Position numbers and translations under genes: made by a program | From: a virus | Lineage: Duplodnaviria; Heunggongvirae; Uroviricota; Caudoviricetes | Length of the DNA: 50,264 bases | Direction: 5' to 3' (one strand) | IMG/VR virus record: IMGVR_UViG_2925891887_000005 | Shown: piece by piece, positions 1-50,225 of the stretch | Layout: every line of letters starts with the position of its first letter | Numbering within the stretch: the stretch's first letter is position 1 | The notes under the pieces: generated by a model | What the model saw: the letters and a program-made list of their open reading frames with translations, nothing else | What the model was told of the DNA's origin: nothing | Databases searched by the model: none

Positions 1-1749
1 ATGACAGTGGCAAATTATAATTCTCTTGTCCAGAAAACTTTCTGCGAAAATGCAATTCGTTCCGTTGTCATGATTGATGACGATTTTCTGACGTATTCTG
101 AATCAATCAGGGCGTTGAATAACGAAGTTGATTTAGACTACAACAAAATTGACTCATCTAAACGAGCCGCTACTCTTGAGAGCTTTTTTCAATCTAAAAA
201 TATGATTTGTGATGTTGACAATGGTTCTGTTAATTTCGATGTGGATCGGATTAGAAAATCAGATCTTATTATTGTAGATTATCATCTTGATAATAATGCA
301 CCTGATAAAACACTTAAACTATTACAAGATTTGAAAGACTCCGATCATTTAAATATGATTGTAATATATACTAGAGAGAATTTAGAAACGGTTTGGATGC
401 AGATATCATCGACTCTCAAAGGTGCTCTGGATATCAACAGCTTGATCATTGACTACGATAATGAAGATGTCCAAAGTTATTGGGAAGACGTTGTATTACC
501 GAACTTAAATGATAATGGTAATAAAGCTCTCACAAGAGATGAAACAATAGCCTATATTAAAGACAGTAAGCCTTGTAGAAGAATTAAAAGATTAATACAT
601 GATGATGCTGTGTTGGAGGATCAAAAGGATAAAAACTTCATTGCAAAAATGATTGCAGAATATGCTGTGTCTAGAAATGCAATTATTTCTAGCAACACAT
701 CTGGCAATGTCATTCGGGGTGATGAAAGCGGAGTAAAATGGATTCAATGTGGTAATATCTTTGTCTCCCTATTTCATAAGGTTCAAGATGATCATGAAAA
801 CGATGGAGATAGGATTTGGCAAACTCTCAATGATTCTCTCATTGAATGGAAACCATCTTATTATCAGTTAATAAAATCTGAAATTCAGAATGCAATCGAA
901 GCTGAGGCTTTATCTTTTGTAAATCATTTGGCTAACGATCATTACGGTCAAGCTGCGTGGTTAAATGAGATATTAAAATCAGACTCGCCAGATATTAGAT
1001 GTAGAAATATTGACTTTGTATTTGGTAATTTATCAGAAGAGCTTTATCAAAGACTTAAAAATAATAATACGCTGGATGAATTTATCAAAAGTGTTTTTGA
1101 TAGCTATTCAAATGAATACGCTAACAGCGGAGTTGCTGCATTGCTCCAATATTGCTCTTCAAAAATGGATCTGCCATCAAATAATGATACTTATCACGAA
1201 ATGTATCATGCTTTAAATATGAATTTGTCTTCAAAGAATTTTGAAGATGGTCATATTTCTACTGGCACTATTTTCTTTGATACAGAGTCGAACAAATGGT
1301 ATTTATGTGTATCTGCGGCATGTGATTTGGTTCCTACTCAGGGTAACGACCCTCACCATGTAAGATTAAGTCCGCACAGGCTCATTAAAGTTCTGGAGCT
1401 TTTTAACGCCAGTCAGAGTAAAGCATTGCCATTTGCTGAACATTCGAAATATATATATGTAATGCATAAAAATCAAAGAAAATATCTCTCTATTTTCGAA
1501 GGGGATAAAACGCTTCCTGTTGTTGATTATATGGTGGTGTTGAATCATGGAACAACAGTTGATGGCGAAGAAAAAAATATTATTTCTGCCGTGTTTTTAA
1601 GTAATATGGATGGCAACGTGCAAAATGTTCCTGTCCGACTCAAACTTAAATCTCAACTGAGAACTGGTTATGCAGAAAGATATCAGGCTATAGCGTCTCA
1701 GTATAGCTCAAGGATTGGTGTGGATTATGTATCAATGATGCTACCATAA
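1..1749 (+). CDS. Hypothetical 582-aa protein with a CheY-like receiver (REC)-like N-terminus and a large uncharacterised C-terminal region
   Basis: Long ORF starting with ATG exactly at window position 1, so upstream context is unseen. N-terminal pattern VVMIDDDF ... DLIIVDYHLDNN ... MIVIYTRE fits the beta1 acidic pair, beta3 Asp and beta4 Thr of receiver domains. Visibly AT-rich compared with the phage core. Confidence 0.6.
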   Translation: MTVANYNSLVQKTFCENAIRSVVMIDDDFLTYSESIRALNNEVDLDYNKIDSSKRAATLESFFQSKNMICDVDNGSVNFDVDRIRKSDLIIVDYHLDNNAPDKTLKLLQDLKDSDHLNMIVIYTRENLETVWMQISSTLKGALDINSLIIDYDNEDVQSYWEDVVLPNLNDNGNKALTRDETIAYIKDSKPCRRIKRLIHDDAVLEDQKDKNFIAKMIAEYAVSRNAIISSNTSGNVIRGDESGVKWIQCGNIFVSLFHKVQDDHENDGDRIWQTLNDSLIEWKPSYYQLIKSEIQNAIEAEALSFVNHLANDHYGQAAWLNEILKSDSPDIRCRNIDFVFGNLSEELYQRLKNNNTLDEFIKSVFDSYSNEYANSGVAALLQYCSSKMDLPSNNDTYHEMYHALNMNLSSKNFEDGHISTGTIFFDTESNKWYLCVSAACDLVPTQGNDPHHVRLSPHRLIKVLELFNASQSKALPFAEHSKYIYVMHKNQRKYLSIFEGDKTLPVVDYMVVLNHGTTVDGEEKNIISAVFLSNMDGNVQNVPVRLKLKSQLRTGYAERYQAIASQYSSRIGVDYVSMMLP

Positions 1750-1820
1750 TTATTATATTTTAGGCGTGGTGATTTTTTTTCGCCATGCCTATTTTATATT
1801 TATCATCACAATGATGTTGT

Positions 1821-2237
1821 TTATTTTTGTTTAAGTCTTCTAAGCTTCATGCATTCTAATGAGAATAATAATAGAGTTGTGCTGTATATAAAGCCAGAGT
1901 TAGTTAATAACTTTAAATTTAATGCTTCAGGATTTTCACTGAGAAAGTGAAAGGCATAAACTAAGTATACAGCTAAAGTAGCCGTTCCAATTGTTGGTCC
2001 AATATCGCCTTGATCATGAGGTTCAAGGTTTACATTGAACTTGAAGATTAGCCATTCAAATCCCCAAGTAAAAAAAACAACTAATATCATGGCTGCGAAT
2101 AATTTCGCGATGTTATCTGCTGATGGATTCATCAGAACAGATTGTTTCTGAAAAAATTCACAAAGTGAGAGTCCGAAAAAAATAAAAAAAAGTGGTCTGG
2201 AACTAAATTTTTCAAAAACTTTGAATAGGGTTTCCAT
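1821..2237 (-). CDS. Small integral membrane protein (about 4 predicted TM helices), function unknown
   Basis: 138-aa ORF with four hydrophobic stretches (LFFIFFGLSL, AAMILVVFFTWGFEWLIF, TIGTATLAVYLVYAFHFL, GFIYSTTLLLFSL). AT-rich. Convergent with the 1-1749 ORF and directly downstream of the P4-like integrase. Confidence 0.5.
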   Translation of the reverse strand: METLFKVFEKFSSRPLFFIFFGLSLCEFFQKQSVLMNPSADNIAKLFAAMILVVFFTWGFEWLIFKFNVNLEPHDQGDIGPTIGTATLAVYLVYAFHFLSENPEALNLKLLTNSGFIYSTTLLLFSLECMKLRRLKQK

Positions 2238-2275: not shown

Positions 2276-3505
2276 TTAGGCTACCAGAGCATTTGATCTT
2301 TGAGCTTGAACGTAATCACTCCACCATTGCATCAAACTCTGTCGCTCTATCAGATATTCTGCACGATTGTATGCTGCGATAATTTCATCTTTTTTCGAGT
2401 GGGCAAGCGCTGCCTCAAGAACTTCAGCTCTGAATTTACCAGACTCCTCTGCCGCTGTTCGTGCAATAGAACGCATACCGTGAGCTACAAGCTCGCCTCC
2501 GAACCCCATTCGGATGATAGCTGCGTTGGCTGTTTGTTCATGCATATGATTAAGAGGCGCTTTTATGCTGGGGAAAACCCATTCTCTATGCCCACTTATT
2601 GATTTCATTAATTCAAGGATGCGCAAAGCTTCTTTACTCAAAGGAACTTTGTGAAGCTTTTTCATTTTCATGAAATCAGCAGGAATGTTCCAAATGCTGT
2701 TGGTTGTATCAATATCAGACCACCTTGCGCGAACGGCTTCACCCGGACGAACCCATGTCAACAATTGCCATTCAATTAGCATACGTGTTTCCAACCGGAT
2801 TGACGCATTCGTCAAAGATTCCATAAACCTTGGCAATTCGCTTGGGGGAAGGGCAGGCATATTTTGCTTTTTTGGTTTACTGAATCTTTGACCAAGGTTG
2901 TCAGCCGGGTTGAACTCAATAAGTTCTTCAGTAGCTGCCCACCGGAAGATTTCATTCAGACGTGAAATGATACGGCGTAGAGTTTCCAATACGCCTCGTT
3001 GCTCAATAGGATCAAGGTGTTGTTTTAAGAGCTTAGGTCGGATCTCATTGATAGGGACATTACCCAGACCGGGAAAGACATTTCTCTCTAAGCTGCGCCA
3101 GATGTCTGCTGCATGGTCTTGTGAGATACCTGATGTCTTTACCTTCTCATCTAACCATTTCCGCGCTACGGCTTGGAGAGTGTGCTCAGTAGCACTCTTT
3201 AATGCCTTCGCCTTATCGTTGTTATGGATTTGGGGATCAACACCATTTGCCAGAAAGGAGAGATATTCATCACGTAAGGCTCTGGCTCTTGCAAGGGTAA
3301 GGTGAGGATATGTCCCAAGGCTCATTTTGGTTCTTTTCTTGCTCACTGGTACTGCATACCTGAAATACCAATTTTTCTTGCCTCCTTTCGCCAAAGGAGC
3401 GATTCGTAGAATCAGACCATCACCGTCAAACAAGTTGATTTCTTTATCGGCTGGCTTGGTACTTTTGATTTCAGTGTCAGTGAGCTTCTTAGCGATTTTT
3501 GCCAT
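2276..3505 (-). CDS. int: P4-family tyrosine integrase (N-terminal DUF4102-type arm domain)
   Basis: N-terminus KKLTDTEIKSTKPADKEINLFDGDGLILRIAP...WYFRY is the signature of CP4-57/P4-type integrases; C-terminal catalytic region present. Start chosen at internal MAKIAKK (the track ORF extends to 3547). Lies beside the ssrA 3'-end remnant. Confidence 0.85.
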   Translation of the reverse strand: MAKIAKKLTDTEIKSTKPADKEINLFDGDGLILRIAPLAKGGKKNWYFRYAVPVSKKRTKMSLGTYPHLTLARARALRDEYLSFLANGVDPQIHNNDKAKALKSATEHTLQAVARKWLDEKVKTSGISQDHAADIWRSLERNVFPGLGNVPINEIRPKLLKQHLDPIEQRGVLETLRRIISRLNEIFRWAATEELIEFNPADNLGQRFSKPKKQNMPALPPSELPRFMESLTNASIRLETRMLIEWQLLTWVRPGEAVRARWSDIDTTNSIWNIPADFMKMKKLHKVPLSKEALRILELMKSISGHREWVFPSIKAPLNHMHEQTANAAIIRMGFGGELVAHGMRSIARTAAEESGKFRAEVLEAALAHSKKDEIIAAYNRAEYLIERQSLMQWWSDYVQAQRSNALVA

Positions 3506-3670
3506 TTTGGGACCCTCGGTTTTTGGACCCTTCTTAGTGGGTCCCATTCAGGGTGCCATAACTCGTAGTTCTCAGCAATTCTCACTGGACGACAATAGAC
3601 GTAAAAAAGCCCGCAGAGCTTGTGCTGTGTGGGCTTAGTAGACTTCATTGAACTTCAAACAACTAAAAAG

Positions 3671-3700
3671 TGGTGGAGCTGGCGGGAGTTGAACCCGCGT
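3671..3700. repeat. 30-bp direct repeat of the ssrA 3' end (attachment-site core; left prophage boundary)
   Basis: tggtggagctggcgggagttgaacccgcgt at 3671-3700 is identical to 49863-49892, the 3' terminus of intact ssrA; flanking sequence diverges on both sides. Confidence 0.85.
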
Positions 3701-3841: not shown

Positions 3842-4765
3842 ATGGAACTGTTGATTTCCCCAAAAAGATTGTGCCTTTATAATGATTCTGATCGCCGTGT
3901 TACAGCTAAGTTTTTGAACTCAGTTGATAACACCCTTGCGAGAGCATCTGGACAAGTGGTTATAGACTTTTCGACAGTAGAATATGCAGGTGCTGCAGCT
4001 AGCGTAAGGTTGTTTGCTATCATCAGTAGGGCTTATTTTATGGCATTCGGCACAAGTAGTCTTCGATTTATTTGGCCGAAAAAAGAAAATAATCCGTATG
4101 GGCATCGATATATTGTTGGGACGGGGTTATCGATTGCTCTAATGGCAAATACAGTTGATAAATTAGATGTTCTTACTAAGGAACGCAGGTACTTTCAGTC
4201 TGCTGTGGAACCGTATGAACATTGGGCTAAAACGATGGAATTTATTGATTCAAAAGCAATTCTCACATTTGAGCAATATCTTTTGGTCTCCTCAGCCCTT
4301 AGTGAGGCAATGCTGAATGTTTCATATCATGCATATGAACATCCAGACTTTGCTGGTGCTACAGAGCATATGCAAGGGAAACGATGGTGGCAGAGTTGTT
4401 GGTACAACCCTGACACAGACAAGGTTGTCTTTATTATTTATGATCTTGGGCTTGGCATACATAAATCATTTACTTCAGCCTCTCCGTTGTTTACTGGGTA
4501 TGACGACGTGACATCTGTGTCAACAGCCCTGACAGGAGGACAGTCCAGATATGTTAACGCTGGACGTGGTAATGGTTCTGAGGATATAAAGAGACCTATA
4601 GGGTCTGGCTGTGCGAATTCAGAATCACTTTTGGTGTTCACAGGGAATGTTAAGTACAGCTATAATTCAAGAAATGAGGTTCCCAAATGCGAGTGGATAC
4701 CTGAGTACATGCCGGGAACATTGATTGAATGGTCATTAGTTCCGAGGAGAGGAGAAGATGGTTAA
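3842..4765 (+). CDS. GHKL-type (histidine-kinase-like) ATPase-domain protein, possibly with an N-terminal STAS-like segment
   Basis: N-box-like SEAMLNVSYHAYEH, G1-like IIYDLGLGI and G2-like GRGNGS...IGSG motifs in the C-terminal half. N-terminal VVIDFSTVEYAGAAASVRLF resembles STAS-like folds. GAGG ribosome-binding site 8 nt upstream of the ATG. Confidence 0.6.
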   Translation: MELLISPKRLCLYNDSDRRVTAKFLNSVDNTLARASGQVVIDFSTVEYAGAAASVRLFAIISRAYFMAFGTSSLRFIWPKKENNPYGHRYIVGTGLSIALMANTVDKLDVLTKERRYFQSAVEPYEHWAKTMEFIDSKAILTFEQYLLVSSALSEAMLNVSYHAYEHPDFAGATEHMQGKRWWQSCWYNPDTDKVVFIIYDLGLGIHKSFTSASPLFTGYDDVTSVSTALTGGQSRYVNAGRGNGSEDIKRPIGSGCANSESLLVFTGNVKYSYNSRNEVPKCEWIPEYMPGTLIEWSLVPRRGEDG

Positions 4766-5099
4766 CATCGTCATAGCAAGGGATTTCTCAAAGATGCCAT
4801 TTGGAAGGTTCAAGTCTGACAGCCCGAACAGTGCTGAGCGTTTTCGTAAGGACTTTCTGGTTCCTGCATTAAAATCTGGTGAGCGTGAGGTTGTCGTAGA
4901 TTTTACGGGTATAAATCATGGGATTGGTTCTTCGTTTCTAGAGGAGGCCTTTGGAGGGCTTGTTAGGAAGGAAGGTGTACCTAAGGCTGACATTAAGGCA
5001 AAACTAATTATAAAAAGTGATTTGCCGTTCTATAAAGATCAAATTTTTAGATATATTGAAATGGCTAATCCAGAAAGGAAGCCTTTCCAAAGGAGTTGA
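4758..5099 (+). CDS. STAS-like (DUF4325-like) small protein, putative partner of the upstream GHKL ATPase
   Basis: 113 aa. Motif VVVDFTGINHGIGSSFLEEAFGGL matches the conserved core I recall for STAS-like/DUF4325 domains. ATG overlaps the upstream stop (translational coupling) and follows a GAGGAGAGGAG ribosome-binding site. Confidence 0.55.
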   Translation: MVNIVIARDFSKMPFGRFKSDSPNSAERFRKDFLVPALKSGEREVVVDFTGINHGIGSSFLEEAFGGLVRKEGVPKADIKAKLIIKSDLPFYKDQIFRYIEMANPERKPFQRS

Positions 5100-5100
5100 T

Positions 5101-5730
5101 TTGAACACCGTTGATATTAAGGACACCCTTGCAGGGGTGTCCACTTACGCATGGATGTTTAGTGTTGTGAGTATTATCTTAGTGTTTATTGGATGGTTTG
5201 TTACTTACAATAATTCACTGAAGATTGCTACTCGCTCTGAATCTAAATCGATTATAGATGCGATTGCTAAAATTTTAAACGAAATATCGGATTTGTCTCT
5301 GGATTACTGGGTTAATAAGTCAACACCACCAGATTCTAATCCATTTAAGAAAAAAAGTTTTAAGAACTCTAATGGATTGCATACTCAGTCGGCGAAAATA
5401 TATTTAACGGCAATTCATGGAAAAGCCATACAAATAAATAAATACATTAATCTTCTCGATGAGAGGGGGATAAAAATAACAATTTCGTATTTTTCTAATA
5501 TTATAGATGAAGCTACTATGGAATGTGAGAAATCATATTGTTTTAATAAGTCATATAGGGTTTTTCGCGCTCAGAATGTATCTAGTGCTTGTATCGATTT
5601 CATAATGCATTTATATGATTCTTTTCAAAAAAATCATCCTCCACGTAAGCCTGTATATGTATTGAAAACATTAAAACAATTGGATTGTTACTTGGATAAA
5701 TGGCATAATGAATTATGTGGGCGGCAATAA
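5101..5730 (+). CDS. Membrane-anchored protein (single N-terminal TM helix plus about 170-aa soluble domain), function unknown
   Basis: Track ORF is 5017-5730. AAGGAG sits 5 nt before an in-frame TTG at 5101, immediately after the upstream stop; alternative starts are ATG 5017 or ATG 5155. TM segment YAWMFSVVSIILVFIGWFVTY. Very AT-rich. Confidence 0.5.
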   Translation: MNTVDIKDTLAGVSTYAWMFSVVSIILVFIGWFVTYNNSLKIATRSESKSIIDAIAKILNEISDLSLDYWVNKSTPPDSNPFKKKSFKNSNGLHTQSAKIYLTAIHGKAIQINKYINLLDERGIKITISYFSNIIDEATMECEKSYCFNKSYRVFRAQNVSSACIDFIMHLYDSFQKNHPPRKPVYVLKTLKQLDCYLDKWHNELCGRQ

Positions 5731-5742
5731 ATGCCGCCATAA

Positions 5743-6909
5743 TCATTGTATAATGTATTTGATGGAGCTTTTTCCGTCGTATTCTTTGAGATATCGACCA
5801 TAGTGCCTGAAAAGCATCTCCGGCCCTTTATGCCCCATTTGAGCTGCAAGCCAAAACAGGTTTGCTCCTCGGCTGATATGGCTGGTGGCGAATGTATGCC
5901 TGGTTTGATATGGGTTTCTGTAACGAATACCTGCTTTTCGCAATGTTGGCACCCATGCTTTTTTCCTAATTGCATCAGCACTTGCCCAAGGCTTATTGGT
6001 CTTTGGATCTTCAAAGACAGTAGTATCCTTCATGAATGTAAATGGCTTCTGATTTATCAGCGCCAACATTGCCTCTTCTGTCAGTTCAACTTTCCGAGTA
6101 CCTGCTTTTGTCTTTGTCCCTTTGATAACACCGACAACACTTGCGCTCTGGACATAGGCAGTTTTTCCAACAAAGTCGATATCACGCCATCGAAGGGCAC
6201 ATAATTCAGAACTACGCAGGCCTGTATGTATAGCGAACCGGAACAGATTTTCCCATTGTTTGTTTCCGGCTGCTGCTAGTAATGCATCAACTTCTGCTGG
6301 TGATAGCGGATCAACTACGTAGCTGCTTTCTGCTTCTGACTTATCACTTTGGTAGCGCGAAGCTGTTACTAACGATACGGGGTTAATTTGAAGTACCCCA
6401 TCGGTCACGGCTTCATCAAGTGCTGACCGCAGGAAAGATAACTGGTTGCGAATTGTTTTTAAGGTCGTTTTCTGATTTTGAATCCACGCTTTCAGGGTTG
6501 CTGGTGTTAATTCACTTGCAGGGCAAATGTGAAGTGAGGCTAACGCACTACGGCATTTTTTATAGCCACCAATCGTAGAGGGTGAAAGTTTTCTTGTTTC
6601 GCAGATTTCAAGATATTCGTCCAGGTACATCTTTACCGTTTTGCCTGCAGCAGCATTACCAAAAATTTTCAAACGAGCAGAACGGGGAAAATATTCTGCA
6701 TAAATGAATGTTCCCCTTTCGATCTTATTATGGATTTCGCCGAGTGTACGCTCGGCGTATTTAATGTTCTTTGGTGTTACTTCCAGATTGGAAAGCGGCT
6801 CACGACATCTAACTCCTTTGTAGGTGAAAGTTATATTGATCGTTTCTCCCTGGCGGTGTTTCCTGATTGTTACGCCGCGCGGTAGTTTGAGCAGTTTTGT
6901 CTGGCCCAT
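5743..6909 (-). CDS. int: Prophage tyrosine integrase (lambda-type, arm-binding N-terminus)
   Basis: 388 aa with a catalytic C-terminus (R...HxxR...Y pattern: RHTFATS, LFRHYGRY) and an N-terminal arm-type domain. Immediately downstream of xis in the leftward operon. Confidence 0.9.
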   Translation of the reverse strand: MGQTKLLKLPRGVTIRKHRQGETINITFTYKGVRCREPLSNLEVTPKNIKYAERTLGEIHNKIERGTFIYAEYFPRSARLKIFGNAAAGKTVKMYLDEYLEICETRKLSPSTIGGYKKCRSALASLHICPASELTPATLKAWIQNQKTTLKTIRNQLSFLRSALDEAVTDGVLQINPVSLVTASRYQSDKSEAESSYVVDPLSPAEVDALLAAAGNKQWENLFRFAIHTGLRSSELCALRWRDIDFVGKTAYVQSASVVGVIKGTKTKAGTRKVELTEEAMLALINQKPFTFMKDTTVFEDPKTNKPWASADAIRKKAWVPTLRKAGIRYRNPYQTRHTFATSHISRGANLFWLAAQMGHKGPEMLFRHYGRYLKEYDGKSSIKYIIQ

Positions 6910-45771: not shown

Positions 45772-46590
<819 letters not shown>

Positions 46591-46951
46591 TCATTGCAAG
46601 GGCTCACAACCAGTAGTGTTGAGAAAACCATCGGAGAAATGAGGCTAAGCCTTTGAATTTACATAGTACAAAAAAGATACTTTTCCTCATAATGTGAGCT
46701 AATTTTATGTTTCGTTTGATGATTGGACCGGTCTCGAAAACCGTAGACACATAGTATGCGTTAATTTATGAACAAACTACTTGTCTGCTGTTTTTCTGTC
46801 ATTAGTCGTATATAGAATGATTCTCTATGCCTAACAAAGCATCACCAGTGCTAGATTACGTTGTAGTCACTGTTTAAATATCCAGATAAAACATTTCCTT
46901 CTGGGTTGAATGAGTGATAAAGTTTCACCCATTAGACCCCTTGGAGGAATT

Positions 46952-48385
46952 ATGTCTGAATTTGAAGTGTTGGCACAGCATCTGCTGAAGGAAGCCGAGG
47001 CGGAAGAAAAGCTGCGACAGGAAAATGATAAAAAGCTTATCGAGAAAGTGCTGGAAATCTATGATCAGAAGTATGTGGCTGAATTACTGAGAAAAGTCGG
47101 AAAAAATGAGTGGAGCCGTGAAACCATTAACCGCTGGATTAATGGCAAGTGTTTACCAAAATCGTTGACTTCAGTAGAAGAGTCTCTTCTGCGTAAGATG
47201 CTACCAGAACCACCTGCAAACCATCCGGAATATGCTTTCCGCTTCATTGACTTATTTGCTGGAATTGGAGGGATACGGAAAGGTTTTGAGGCCATTGGAG
47301 GCCAGTGTGTTTTTACCAGTGAATGGAATAAAGATGCTGTGCGTACATACAAGGCCAACTGGTTTAACGATGAACAGGTGCATAAATTCAATCTCGATAT
47401 TCGGGAAGTCACGCTGAGTGATAAAACCGATGTATTGGAAACGGATGCTTATGCATATATTGATGAGCATGTGCCGGATCATGATGTGCTTCTTGCGGGG
47501 TTCCCGTGCCAGCCATTTAGCCTTGCTGGTGTTAGTAAGAAAAACTCACTTGGTCGTGCGCATGGTTTTGAATGTGAAGCACAAGGAACACTTTTTTTTG
47601 ACGTGGCACGTATTATACGAGCAAAAAAACCGGCAATTTTTGTGCTGGAAAATGTCAAAAATCTGAAGAGCCATGATAAGGGTAAAACTTTCAAAGTCAT
47701 TATGGAGACCCTTGACGAGCTGGGCTACGAAGTTGCCGATGCTGCAGAAATGGGAAAAAACGATCCAAAGATTATCGATGGGAAGCATTTTTTGCCTCAG
47801 CATCGTGAACGCATTGTTCTGGTCGGATTTAGACGAGATCTGAATATTCACAAGGGGTTTACCTTGCGTGATATCAGTCGTTTTTATCCGGAACACCGCC
47901 CATCATTTGGTGAATTGCTGGAGCCTGTAGTCGACAGTAAATATATACTTACGCCAAAACTATGGGAGTACCTTTATAACTACGCCAAAAAGCATGCAGC
48001 CAAGGGGAATGGTTTTGGCTTTGGGTTGGTCAATCCTGAGAATAAGGAAAGCATTGCACGCACACTTTCTGCCAGATATCACAAAGACGGATCAGAAATT
48101 CTTATTGATCGTGGTTGGGATATGGCAACGGGAGAGGCTGACTTTATGAATGAGAGTAATCAGGCTCGTCGACCACGCAGGCTGACTCCCCGAGAGTGCG
48201 CACGCCTTATGGGATTTGAAAAACCTGGAGGGAAACCATTCCGTATTCCGGTTTCAGATACTCAGTCATATCGGCAGTTCGGTAACTCAGTTGTGGTGCC
48301 AGTATTTGAAGCTGTTGCCAGACTTCTGGAACCCTATATCCTCAAAGCTGTTTCTGCTGATGCTGGTAAGACTGGGCAGCCTTGA
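46952..48385 (+). CDS. dcm: C5-cytosine DNA methyltransferase, Dcm / M.EcoRII-like (CCWGG)
   Basis: [17 protein letters not shown] (motif I), GFPCQPFS (motif IV), ENV (motif VI), QFGNSV; near-identical to Dcm/M.EcoRII as recalled. Start at MSEFE with a GGAGG ribosome-binding site; the track ORF starts at 46910. Confidence 0.9.
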
Positions 48386-48419: not shown

Positions 48420-49634
48420 CTATGATAGTTCAGCGTAAAGCTCTATCAGCTCAGTAATGAATGCTCCGAGCGTTATTAATTCTTCTCTAACTGCTTCTGG
48501 GTATTTTTTATGTAAAGTTGATGGTACAACGAGTCTGACACCCGCATCTTTCATTTCTCGGTATTGTGCTGAAGAAACACCTTCTTGCAGTGTAAATAAA
48601 TGTACCTGATGGATTTTATCTGCTTCATTCAGTATCTGACGCCAGCGATCTTTGCAGGTGGTCTTTACTGCCAGCATACGTAAGTTTTCTACAGGAAATT
48701 CAACGTTATGATATGCCTCTGCTGAAGGAAACAGGAAATCTGGTTTTTTATTACCTTCAGTAACTGCCTGAGTGGAGAAATGCCGTAGTCCGTGCTCGAT
48801 AAAAAGCTTCTCTAGGTGAAGTTCAAGTGATTTGCCTGCCCTTGATTTACGTCGATTACTGACAGAGTTGGCTAATGCAATAAACTCATCTACAGAATCG
48901 AATCCTTTCTTAATAATATCAAGAACATGTAATTCCTCGACGAGTAGAAAAATATCATACTCGACACGCCGACGGTCAATCAGTTGCTCATCTGGATCCT
49001 TGGAGTTTTTAGCATAATGGCCAGCAGCATATTGAATAATTTCGTTTCCAGAAGGAAAACGCTTCTTCCAGTCTTCAGGAATAACATATTTATGATTTAC
49101 TGGAGTTTGCTGAAGAGACAATCCGCCCAAAATTTGTCCGGCAGGGCCGGAAATTAGGGTTCCAGGTATGATTTCGCCAATAGCAGACTCGATGATATCC
49201 TCTTCATCGGGATTGACGCAGACCCATATATCTACCTCGGAACAGTCAGTGTTCTGTTCGTTTAACCTGAAAGCAAGAATTGTGAGGGCTCCTGTATTTT
49301 CAGGGTTCTGTAATGGACTTCCTCTCCCCCAGCGCGTAATTCTTTTTTCGTTTCGGGTCTTACCAAAATAACGGTTGTTGTAATAAATTGCGCGTGCTTG
49401 GGTATCAGGGCAATCATGGGATGATACATGCGCAGTAAGGAAGACTGAAGGGTTCAGTTCGCGAGTATGATTGATAGATGGAAAAAGCTTTTCAACGATA
49501 TTTGAGGGGATATAAAGTCCGACCTGATGGCCACCTGTTGCGCCTGTGTCGTTTGCAGAAAGGCGTTTGATGTAGATAAAGTAATTCCCGCTTGCGATAT
49601 CAAGCAGCCAGTTATGAAAAACCGACATATACAT
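48420..49634 (-). CDS. ecoRIIR: Type IIE restriction endonuclease, EcoRII-like
   Basis: 404 aa; N-terminus SVFHNWLL...YIKRLSANDTGATGGHQVGLYIP matches the EcoRII effector domain as recalled; convergent with the methyltransferase. Confidence 0.85.
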   Translation of the reverse strand: MYMSVFHNWLLDIASGNYFIYIKRLSANDTGATGGHQVGLYIPSNIVEKLFPSINHTRELNPSVFLTAHVSSHDCPDTQARAIYYNNRYFGKTRNEKRITRWGRGSPLQNPENTGALTILAFRLNEQNTDCSEVDIWVCVNPDEEDIIESAIGEIIPGTLISGPAGQILGGLSLQQTPVNHKYVIPEDWKKRFPSGNEIIQYAAGHYAKNSKDPDEQLIDRRRVEYDIFLLVEELHVLDIIKKGFDSVDEFIALANSVSNRRKSRAGKSLELHLEKLFIEHGLRHFSTQAVTEGNKKPDFLFPSAEAYHNVEFPVENLRMLAVKTTCKDRWRQILNEADKIHQVHLFTLQEGVSSAQYREMKDAGVRLVVPSTLHKKYPEAVREELITLGAFITELIELYAELS

Positions 49635-49862: not shown

Positions 49863-49892
49863 TGGTGGAGCTGGCGGGAGTTGAACCCGCGT
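49863..49892. repeat. attR core: 3' end of ssrA, identical to the repeat at 3671-3700
   Basis: Exact 30-bp identity with 3671-3700. Confidence 0.85.
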
Positions 49893-50225
49893 CCGAAATT
49901 CCTACATCCTCGGTACTACATGCTTAGTCAGTCTTTACATTCGCTTGCCAACTGCGGACGGACACGCCACTAACAAACTAGCCTGATTAAGTTTTAACGC
50001 TTCAACCCCAGGCAGGGCTTCCACGCGATCTCTTTTGGGTTTGACCTCTCTTGATCCCCGTCCTAAGAGCGGAGGCTAGGGAGAGAGGGCTCTAAGCAGG
50101 TTATTAAGCTGCTAAAGCGTAGTTTTCGTCGTTTGCGACTATTTTTTGCGGCTTTTTACGAGGCCAACCGCCCCTCGGCATGCACCTTGGGTTTCGCAAA
50201 TCCCGTCGAATCCAGAATCAGCCCC
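49863..50225 (-). ncRNA. ssrA: tmRNA (SsrA), complete 363-nt gene
   Basis: Reverse complement reads GGGGCTGATTCTGGATTCGACGGG ... tag ORF GCAAACGACGAAAACTACGCTTTAGCAGCTTAA (ANDENYALAA) ... GGTTCAACTCCCGCCAGCTCCACCA; a TATACT -10 element lies just upstream at about 50240. Confidence 0.95.

Follow-up and report, generated by a model that had tools for sequence, protein, structure and literature searches.

A decayed copy of the methylase-linked Response_reg_2/HEF_HK module in the ssrA islands of Escherichia coli

The left end of a 50,264-nucleotide stretch of Escherichia coli chromosome, held in IMG/VR as the Caudoviricetes record IMGVR_UViG_2925891887_000005 (the whole stretch is called the window here), carries a gene for a 582-amino-acid (aa) protein with an N-terminal receiver (REC) domain, a convergent gene for a 138-aa hydrophobic protein and a gene for a P4-type tyrosine integrase (Table 1). 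The original prediction, made from the letters alone, had described the first two as AT-rich cargo beside such an integrase, with one long open reading frame (ORF) opening on the first ATG of the window and the other converging on it. Both ORFs are found in the ORF table and by translation, and the contrast in composition is real, with a guanine plus cytosine (GC) content of 0.343 for the REC gene and 0.321 for the 138-aa gene compared to 0.45 for the integrase gene and 0.493 for the whole window; the two genes are horizontally acquired cargo of an ssrA island. Over its first 3800 bases the window matches strain CFSAN064035, and hundreds of further E. coli genomes, with 100% identity, and the 582-aa protein itself is identical to WP_000214990.1 and 100% identical to a coding sequence annotated as 'response regulator receiver domain' in NZ_CP031134. 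The start of the window on an ATG is biologically meaningless; in the matching genome a kinase gene stops 2 nucleotides (nt) before it. We find that the 582-aa protein is a member of a known, published and annotated family, Response_reg_2, and not a new module, and that the copy at this locus is a decayed one, from which a DNA methylase gene and the N-terminal part of the partner kinase have been deleted.

The CheY-like hallmarks that had been recognised at the N-terminus proved genuine. Residues 19-175 match Pfam PF19192 (Response_reg_2) with E=3.6e-31 and 109.1 bits, compared to a cut-off of 27, and 111 homologues cover the full length of the protein. Among 113 sequences with 21-51% identity to the window protein, no substitution occurs at D93 (in IIVDYHL), T124 (in IVIYTRE) or K260, and at least 90% retain D26; in a smaller set of 45 sequences D26 and D27 are both invariant. 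These residues account for the receiver chemistry, with D26/D27 as the acidic pair on beta1, D93 as the phospho-acceptor on beta3, T124 on beta4 and K260 on beta5. An AlphaFold model of the whole protein, built from 45 homologues (predicted local distance difference test, pLDDT, 86; predicted template modelling score, pTM, 0.78), contains the (beta-alpha)5 receiver fold, and isolated REC domains align with it over 105-119 residues. In the DSSP assignment residues 125-238 are free of any strand, which, together with the length of the REC alignment, places the fifth strand at 253-259, ending at the invariant K260. The model thus probably contains a helical insertion of approximately 90 residues (~145-235) in the REC domain, between alpha4 and beta5. 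Kinship to the canonical CheY-like receiver is seen at fold level only, PF00072 (Response_reg) giving no match at E<=1, and a scan of the 582-aa protein against NCBIfam gave no match either. Profile and model together identify the N-terminus as a true receiver domain, which is apparently phosphorylatable.

Table 1. Coordinates of the features in the window
Feature	Position	Strand	Description
REC-protein gene	1-1749	+	582 aa, opens with ATG at base 1; ORF table and translation
Receiver (REC) domain	55-855	+	residues ~19-285
All-helical bundle	856-1230	+	residues 286-410, with conserved HALN motif and invariant N406; AlphaFold
Beta-rich module and C-terminal helix	1231-1746	+	residues 411-582; candidate effector
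Terminator-like hairpin and T-run	1761-1791	+	just 3' of the REC stop; stem of 12 pairs, 6 of them GC; consensus scan, pattern match only
138-aa hydrophobic protein gene	1821-2237	-	convergent with REC gene; ORF table
P4-type tyrosine integrase	2276-3547	-	423-aa ORF, annotated as 409 aa; NF007246 E=4.8e-132
30-bp copy of ssrA 3' end	3671-3700		attachment (att) core; exact repeat of 49863-49892
Lambdoid prophage	3701-49862		~46 kb
Three-gene cassette	3842-5730		between att copy and prophage integrase
Prophage integrase	5743-6909	-	~2 kb from att copy
GIY-YIG protein gene	45772-46545	-	257 aa; PADLOC PD-T4-3 model
EcoRII-type C5 methylase	46910-48385	+	DNA_meth_N
EcoRII-type endonuclease	48420-49634	-	EcoRII-N and EcoRII-C
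ssrA (transfer-messenger RNA)	49863-50225	-	ARAGORN, tag peptide ANDENYALAA; att core 49863-49892

The remainder of the protein, in which no motif had been recognised, indeed matches no known family over ~300-450 residues. Comparison of the whole protein and of its C-terminal 297 residues with the PDB (phmmer and profile), Pfam, NCBIfam and PADLOC gave nothing convincing beyond PF19192, and residues 286-582, used as a 22-sequence profile, matched no Pfam family and no PDB sequence. A C-terminal enzymatic fold, entertained earlier, found no backing in Pfam, in PDB sequences or in Foldseek searches against the PDB. A separate AlphaFold model of residues 286-582 (pLDDT 85.6) predicts six or seven helices packed into a bundle (286-410) and, after them, a beta-rich module with a terminal helix (411-567). 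The beta-rich module bears the motifs TGT(I/V)F, CV(S/T)PAC(D/E)xVP, QLRxxYAxR and RIGVDF. Over the same 113 sequences N406, G422, C441 and R571 are invariant, and C436, Y557, R560, G573 and D575 are conserved in at least 90%. Searching 1.84 billion representative proteins with the profile of the C-terminal module yielded 647 clusters (50% identity), and in the best 150 of these the module occupies the same position in proteins of ~560-680 aa; other architectures, which are typical of shuffled defence effectors, were absent among these best 150. A Pfam scan of ten of the matches showed PF19192 in each of the five long proteins and no Pfam domain in the five short ones, which are apparently fragments.

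A MazF/Kid/CcdB toxin fold was considered for this module and downgraded to a lead, as hhalign gave a probability of 0.2% for MazF/Kid/EndoA and 0.05% for CcdB; of the four toxin queries, only the E. coli MazF sequence was verified against the PDB. Moreover, none of 22 members of the module matches PemK_toxin or CcdB in Pfam, and Foldseek against the PDB finds nothing. The likeness of its 'QLRT..' to the 'QIRT..' motif of MazF is unsupported because of the hhalign values of at most 0.2% and the empty Foldseek search, and no counterparts of C436, C441, R571 and D575 were established in the MazF/Kid/CcdB toxins.

The kinase partner that was suspected upstream, outside the window, does exist. In the matching genome a 572-aa 'ATP-binding protein' is encoded directly upstream of base 1, and an IS3 copy precedes its gene. 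It contains HEF_HK (PF19191, E=1.2e-5, 26.1 bits compared to a cut-off of 24.1) and HATPase_c (PF02518, E=1.8e-11), and its DHp/CA part is intact, with conserved H-box, N-box and G-box. Alignment with the 988-aa kinase of Enterobacter covers residues 417-988 of the latter with 73% identity and gives nothing for residues 1-416, the coding homology running ~40 codons further upstream, to the exact end of IS3. Both the HATPase_c_3 (paraMORC) domain and the C5 cytosine methylase gene, which are discussed below, are absent from the window-locus copy. In this E. coli lineage a deletion has taken away the methylase gene together with codons 1 to ~378 of the kinase gene, and in CFSAN064035 it ends at IS3.

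The identical IS3-kinase junction recurs in 484 complete E. coli genomes. In GenBank AJ304858 (2005, CP-1639), a region annotated by its depositors as 'remnant integrative element', the kinase fragment begins at the same nucleotide without IS3 (compare L001 13131-13282, CFSAN064035, with IS3, and L018 2600-2860, the CP-1639 host, without it). IS3 either caused the deletion and was then lost, or arrived at the end of a pre-existing deletion. A search of 5426 complete E. coli genomes did not recover the missing methylase and kinase N-terminus of the island lineage. The REC gene occurs in 573 of these genomes, with at least 99% identity in 559 (~10% of the genomes), and always in the ssrA island next to the integrase gene, a distribution and near-identity that fit one ancestral deletion followed by descent. 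Some copies in complete genomes are split by IS1. A 453-aa 'partial' form (cluster P0008; S410F, ending at residue 453) accounts for 1605 database sequences compared to 1966 intact ones and probably reflects contig breaks at an insertion sequence in a widespread lineage.

The family to which these remnants belong was defined in silico as the PF19192/PF19191 pair (Bellieny-Rabelo, Pretorius & Moleleki 2021; PMC8011034), the two families being linked in 91.6% over 644 regions of a data set that included E. coli strains. In that study a C5 methylase was found upstream, C5 methylases and other restriction-modification (R-M) genes were enriched around the loci, HATPase_c_3 (a paraMORC-type GHKL domain) occupied the kinase N-terminus in 83% of the family members and HNH_2 nucleases lay next to some of the systems; a regulatory role was proposed and the ~300-residue C-terminal module was left unanalysed (PMC8011034). 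The window locus holds the same module, with PF19192 far above threshold and a HEF_HK kinase directly upstream, but no longer has the methylase or the kinase half that bears HATPase_c_3.

In intact relatives the operon consists of a C5 cytosine methylase, a soluble kinase of ~990 aa and a REC protein of ~580 aa, whose start lies 2 nt after the kinase stop. The kinase is composed, in order, of an N-terminal HATPase_c_3, a long coiled region, the HEF_HK phospho-acceptor helices and a C-terminal HATPase_c. We found this three-gene operon in Enterobacter (L004), in Serratia-like and Salmonella islands, at the ssrA islands L006 (REC protein 87% identical) and L009, and in two metagenomic relatives at ~25% identity, which have no additional nuclease gene. 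The C5 methylase is present in all intact relatives sampled, and HATPase_c_3 was detected in L004, L006, L008, L019 and L021. In Acinetobacter (L021-L023) the system is cargo of a Tn7-like transposon (TnsB/C/D/E), and kinase and REC genes are convergent with a 71-aa helix-turn-helix (HTH), controller-like gene and the C5 methylase gene, the same gene layout as in classical controller-regulated type II R-M systems. A divergent lineage occurs intact in 212 complete E. coli genomes, such as SE15 (L013, NC_013654.1 4539140-4555787), with a C5 methylase, a 989-aa kinase and a 607-aa REC protein that is 24% identical to the window protein. This lineage adds an HNH_2 'phosphorothioated DNA-binding restriction endonuclease' and adjoins ArdC/MobH genes of an integrative element. 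HNH_2 is absent from the ssrA-island lineage and, among the E. coli lineages compared, occurs only in the SE15 one. In the ssrA-island lineage Pfam revealed no nuclease family in the REC and kinase proteins or in the products of the genes conserved around them. Upstream of the methylase, enterobacterial islands carry a ~200-aa gene, which is poorly conserved and gave no domain match. Overall, the Response_reg_2 family is spread over Tn7, integrase islands and elements resembling integrative and conjugative elements (ICE-like).

The 138-aa gene lies on the same strand as the integrase gene and 38 nt downstream of it. Its product matches no Pfam family and has homologues in 52 clusters, restricted to Enterobacterales, with 60-99% identity. 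Four hydrophobic helices had been proposed for it; the hydropathy profile does show four peaks, centred at about 20, 55, 91 and 120, of which only the second passes a Kyte-Doolittle value of 1.6, so that four transmembrane helices are plausible but not firm. The gene stands beside the REC system in the enterobacterial islands L008-L012. It is absent from the intact island L006 and from all non-enterobacterial systems sampled, and homologues also occur without the REC system (L014-L017), in Klebsiella oxytoca next to a BamHI-type R-M system and in Photorhabdus within a phage/abortive infection (Abi) region. On the basis of this gene context we reject the 138-aa protein as a component of the system, and with it the earlier idea of a membrane partner for the REC protein; it is read as an accessory gene of variable regions and no obligate part of the system.

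One chromosomal hotspot, marked by genes for a SymE toxin, a glyoxalase and a 247-aa protein, was seen with different contents: a BamHI-type R-M system with the membrane protein, there of 140 aa, in K. oxytoca (L014-L016), and the methylase-kinase-REC system at the SymE/glyoxalase site in Enterobacter (L004/L005). Different cargo at a common hotspot suggests cassette exchange at one site.

Among systems described elsewhere, Ambrosia (AbrR-AbrA-AbrB-AbrC-AbrD), which protects Pseudomonas aeruginosa from phage and requires the phospho-site of its REC protein (bioRxiv 10.1101/2025.09.30.679545), resembles the intact relatives in combining in one operon a methylase, a soluble kinase with HATPase_c_3 and HATPase_c, and a REC protein. 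Compared by domains only, AbrB has the same Pfam composition as the kinase of the intact relatives. AbrC, on the other hand, is rejected as an orthologue of the 582-aa protein: it has 209 aa and lacks the C-terminal module, its BLASTP match to the 582-aa protein has E=6.9, and PF19192 does not match it. A further difference is that the Ambrosia methylase is an N6-adenine enzyme, whereas that of the intact relatives is a C5 enzyme. An XRE regulator and a separate HNH nuclease are part of Ambrosia and are both missing from the ssrA-island lineage, which instead carries the long C-terminal module on its REC protein.

A second likeness is to the paraMORC/MORC GHKL ATPases of R-M operons (Iyer, Abhiman & Aravind 2008; PMC2292703), in that a gene for an HATPase_c_3-type GHKL ATPase adjoins DNA methylases on mobile defence loci; VcSduA, a paraMORC3-type Shedu protein, shows that a defence nuclease can be under the control of such a domain (PMC12137116). 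In paraMORC/MORC proteins, GHKL is coupled, directly or in an operon, to helicases or PD-(D/E)xK nucleases, whereas in Response_reg_2 systems it is fused to a histidine-kinase core that signals to a separate REC protein; at the window locus the GHKL domain is deleted. Detocs, a defensive two-component system, is said to follow a like principle, an infection-sensing kinase phosphorylating a REC domain that is fused to an effector. Reportedly its kinase is built differently, its effector is of the PNP type, a buffering REC protein is present and a methylase is not. In PADLOC-DB v2.0.0 neither the 582-aa nor the 138-aa protein has a convincing match: the former gives only a weak hit to the 'trans-membrane' candidate model (E=0.0028), the latter none, and the truncated kinase reaches only E=0.026. 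The DefensePredictor paper, in which HATPase/REC systems appear in a figure legend only, is uninformative in this respect.

On balance we think it rather probable that the 582-aa protein is the phosphorylation-gated effector of a restriction-like system, disabled by decay at the window locus. In an intact system the methylase would mark host (self) DNA, and the GHKL/kinase protein would sense foreign or unmodified DNA, or infection, and autophosphorylate on the H-box histidine (SHELEE motif). The phosphate would then move to D93 of the REC domain, and the phosphorylated REC domain would release or activate the C-terminal module, with its helical bundle and its beta-rich domain containing the invariant C441 and R571, which would carry out the restriction or toxic step. 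The C-terminal module is cast as executor because no other nuclease is conserved in most operons. The intact relatives are most reasonably read as having a role in defence or a restriction-like one. Models derived from REBASE already count the GHKL protein as the 'R' gene; the GHKL N-terminus of a relative's full-length kinase matches the REBASE-derived REase_II (type II restriction endonuclease) model of PADLOC with E=8.7e-10, and AbrB, called homologous, is labelled a type II REase by DefenseFinder. The defence or toxin-like module foreseen in the original prediction is a reasonable reading for these relatives and an improbable one for the window copy, which is decayed and devoid of methylase and GHKL half. 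As methylase and sensor half are lost, we argue that the module is off in the window, which retains only the output protein of the system, and what remains is most probably not a functioning defence system.

Several points weigh against an effector role. The function of the C-terminal module is deduced from the lack of another nuclease, an activity that the ~200-aa gene upstream of the methylase could hide. Some lineages, E. coli SE15 among them, have an adjacent HNH_2 endonuclease, and their REC protein might regulate or act as an adaptor instead of being the executor. Moreover, the authors of Ambrosia favour transcriptional control by the REC protein (bioRxiv 10.1101/2025.09.30.679545). The main rival is accordingly a transcriptional-control model, in which the REC protein is a regulator whose phosphorylated C-terminal module binds DNA or protein and controls the methylase or an unlinked nuclease. 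It draws on the regulatory role put forward for the family (PMC8011034), on the infection-induced expression of Ambrosia and the winged HTH (wHTH) that its authors describe in AbrC (bioRxiv 10.1101/2025.09.30.679545), and on the HNH_2 nucleases that adjoin some long-REC systems, both in E. coli SE15 and in the family survey (PMC8011034); we hold it to be unlikely. It is likewise unlikely, to our judgement, that the effector account applies in its strongest form, in which the C-terminal module, a helical bundle plus a beta-barrel faintly resembling MazF/CcdB, would be a toxic or nucleolytic domain of a kind not recognised before, gated by phosphorylation and supplying the missing 'R' to a widespread methylase/GHKL-kinase/REC immune system, and the E. 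coli remnant might be active as well. Such a system would use His-Asp phosphotransfer in place of direct competition between nuclease and methylase.

The state of the E. coli genes themselves also speaks to whether the remnant is dead. About 560 genomes have an unbroken REC ORF with an identity of at least 99%, which weighs against disablement by decay; this near-identity fits recent clonal spread, and a retained function of the truncated kinase and REC pair could also explain it. On that premise the kinase fragment (DHp and catalytic part) and the REC protein would still work as a toxin-like or abortive-infection pair, maybe with the 138-aa protein as partner. The intact REC ORF, the intact DHp/CA part with its three conserved boxes, the maintenance of the pair at this identity in about a tenth of the complete E. 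coli genomes and the company of the 138-aa gene in several enterobacterial islands all agree with it, and IS3 could provide an outward promoter. We nevertheless rate a working pair as quite improbable: near-identity with a junction shared by 484 genomes fits recent common descent rather than selection, IS1-disrupted and truncated REC copies exist, the 138-aa gene is missing from the intact L006 and found elsewhere without the system, and no PADLOC model matches. Moreover, the loss of the methylase with viability kept suggests that the restriction arm is off. That E. coli uses the protein as an ordinary housekeeping response regulator of a two-component system, for which its bona fide REC fold with all residues of the phospho-chemistry could plead, is effectively refuted by distribution and context. 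The protein is confined to 573 of the 5426 complete genomes and always to the ssrA island beside the integrase, its GC content is low (0.34), NCBIfam and PF00072 do not match, and relatives in other taxa travel on Tn7, integrase islands and ICE-like elements; no well-characterised housekeeping family thus emerged.

The copy described here is decayed and belongs to a family already published and annotated, and is therefore of low novelty; the window itself matters little and is best annotated as a relic in E. coli ssrA islands. The family is more interesting, as a mobile methylase-linked module in which a MORC-like GHKL ATPase is fused to a histidine kinase and a REC protein carries an output domain of ~300 residues. 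If this output domain were an effector, it would show two-component phosphotransfer gating a methylation-based discrimination between self and non-self, and would supply a new effector fold. The analysis yields residues to mutate (D93, C436, C441, R571, D575), structure models and intact operons.

The surroundings of the REC gene reflect successive insertions at one site. The integrase passes NCBIfam NF007246 with 440 bits compared to a cut-off of 434 and also contains Arm-DNA-bind_3, Phage_int_M and Phage_integrase. In many E. coli genomes its gene adjoins ssrA directly, and in genomes without the intervening 46 kb the match to the window ends at base 3700, exactly at the end of the 30-bp copy of the ssrA 3' end, a repeat for which the chance expectation is 0. 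The small island with the REC gene is therefore the older insertion, and the 30-bp copy is the former junction of island and ssrA. The ssrA gene was the integration target for the island and then for the ~46-kb prophage, which landed between ssrA and the island.

The lambdoid prophage is bounded by the exact 30-bp ssrA 3'-end copies and contains additional candidate cargo (Table 1). The cassette between the att copy and the prophage integrase gene encodes three proteins. One, of 307 aa, has a weak HATPase_c_2/anti-sigma-F-kinase-like match (E about 0.03-0.05), another is a DUF4325 STAS-like protein of 113 aa (E=8e-15), and the third, AT-rich and of ~210-237 aa, weakly matches the PADLOC '2TM effector' model (E=0.0055). 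The cassette may be a partner-switching-type moron or a defence candidate. The 257-aa GIY-YIG protein matches the PADLOC model of the known defence gene PD-T4-3 from end to end (E=7.6e-140). The ORF nearest to ssrA was rejected as a second integrase, since Pfam identifies it as an EcoRII endonuclease (EcoRII-N and EcoRII-C, E about 1e-61 to 1e-71). Together with the C5 methylase next to it (DNA_meth_N, E=4.7e-78), it forms a complete EcoRII-type R-M pair at this end of the prophage.

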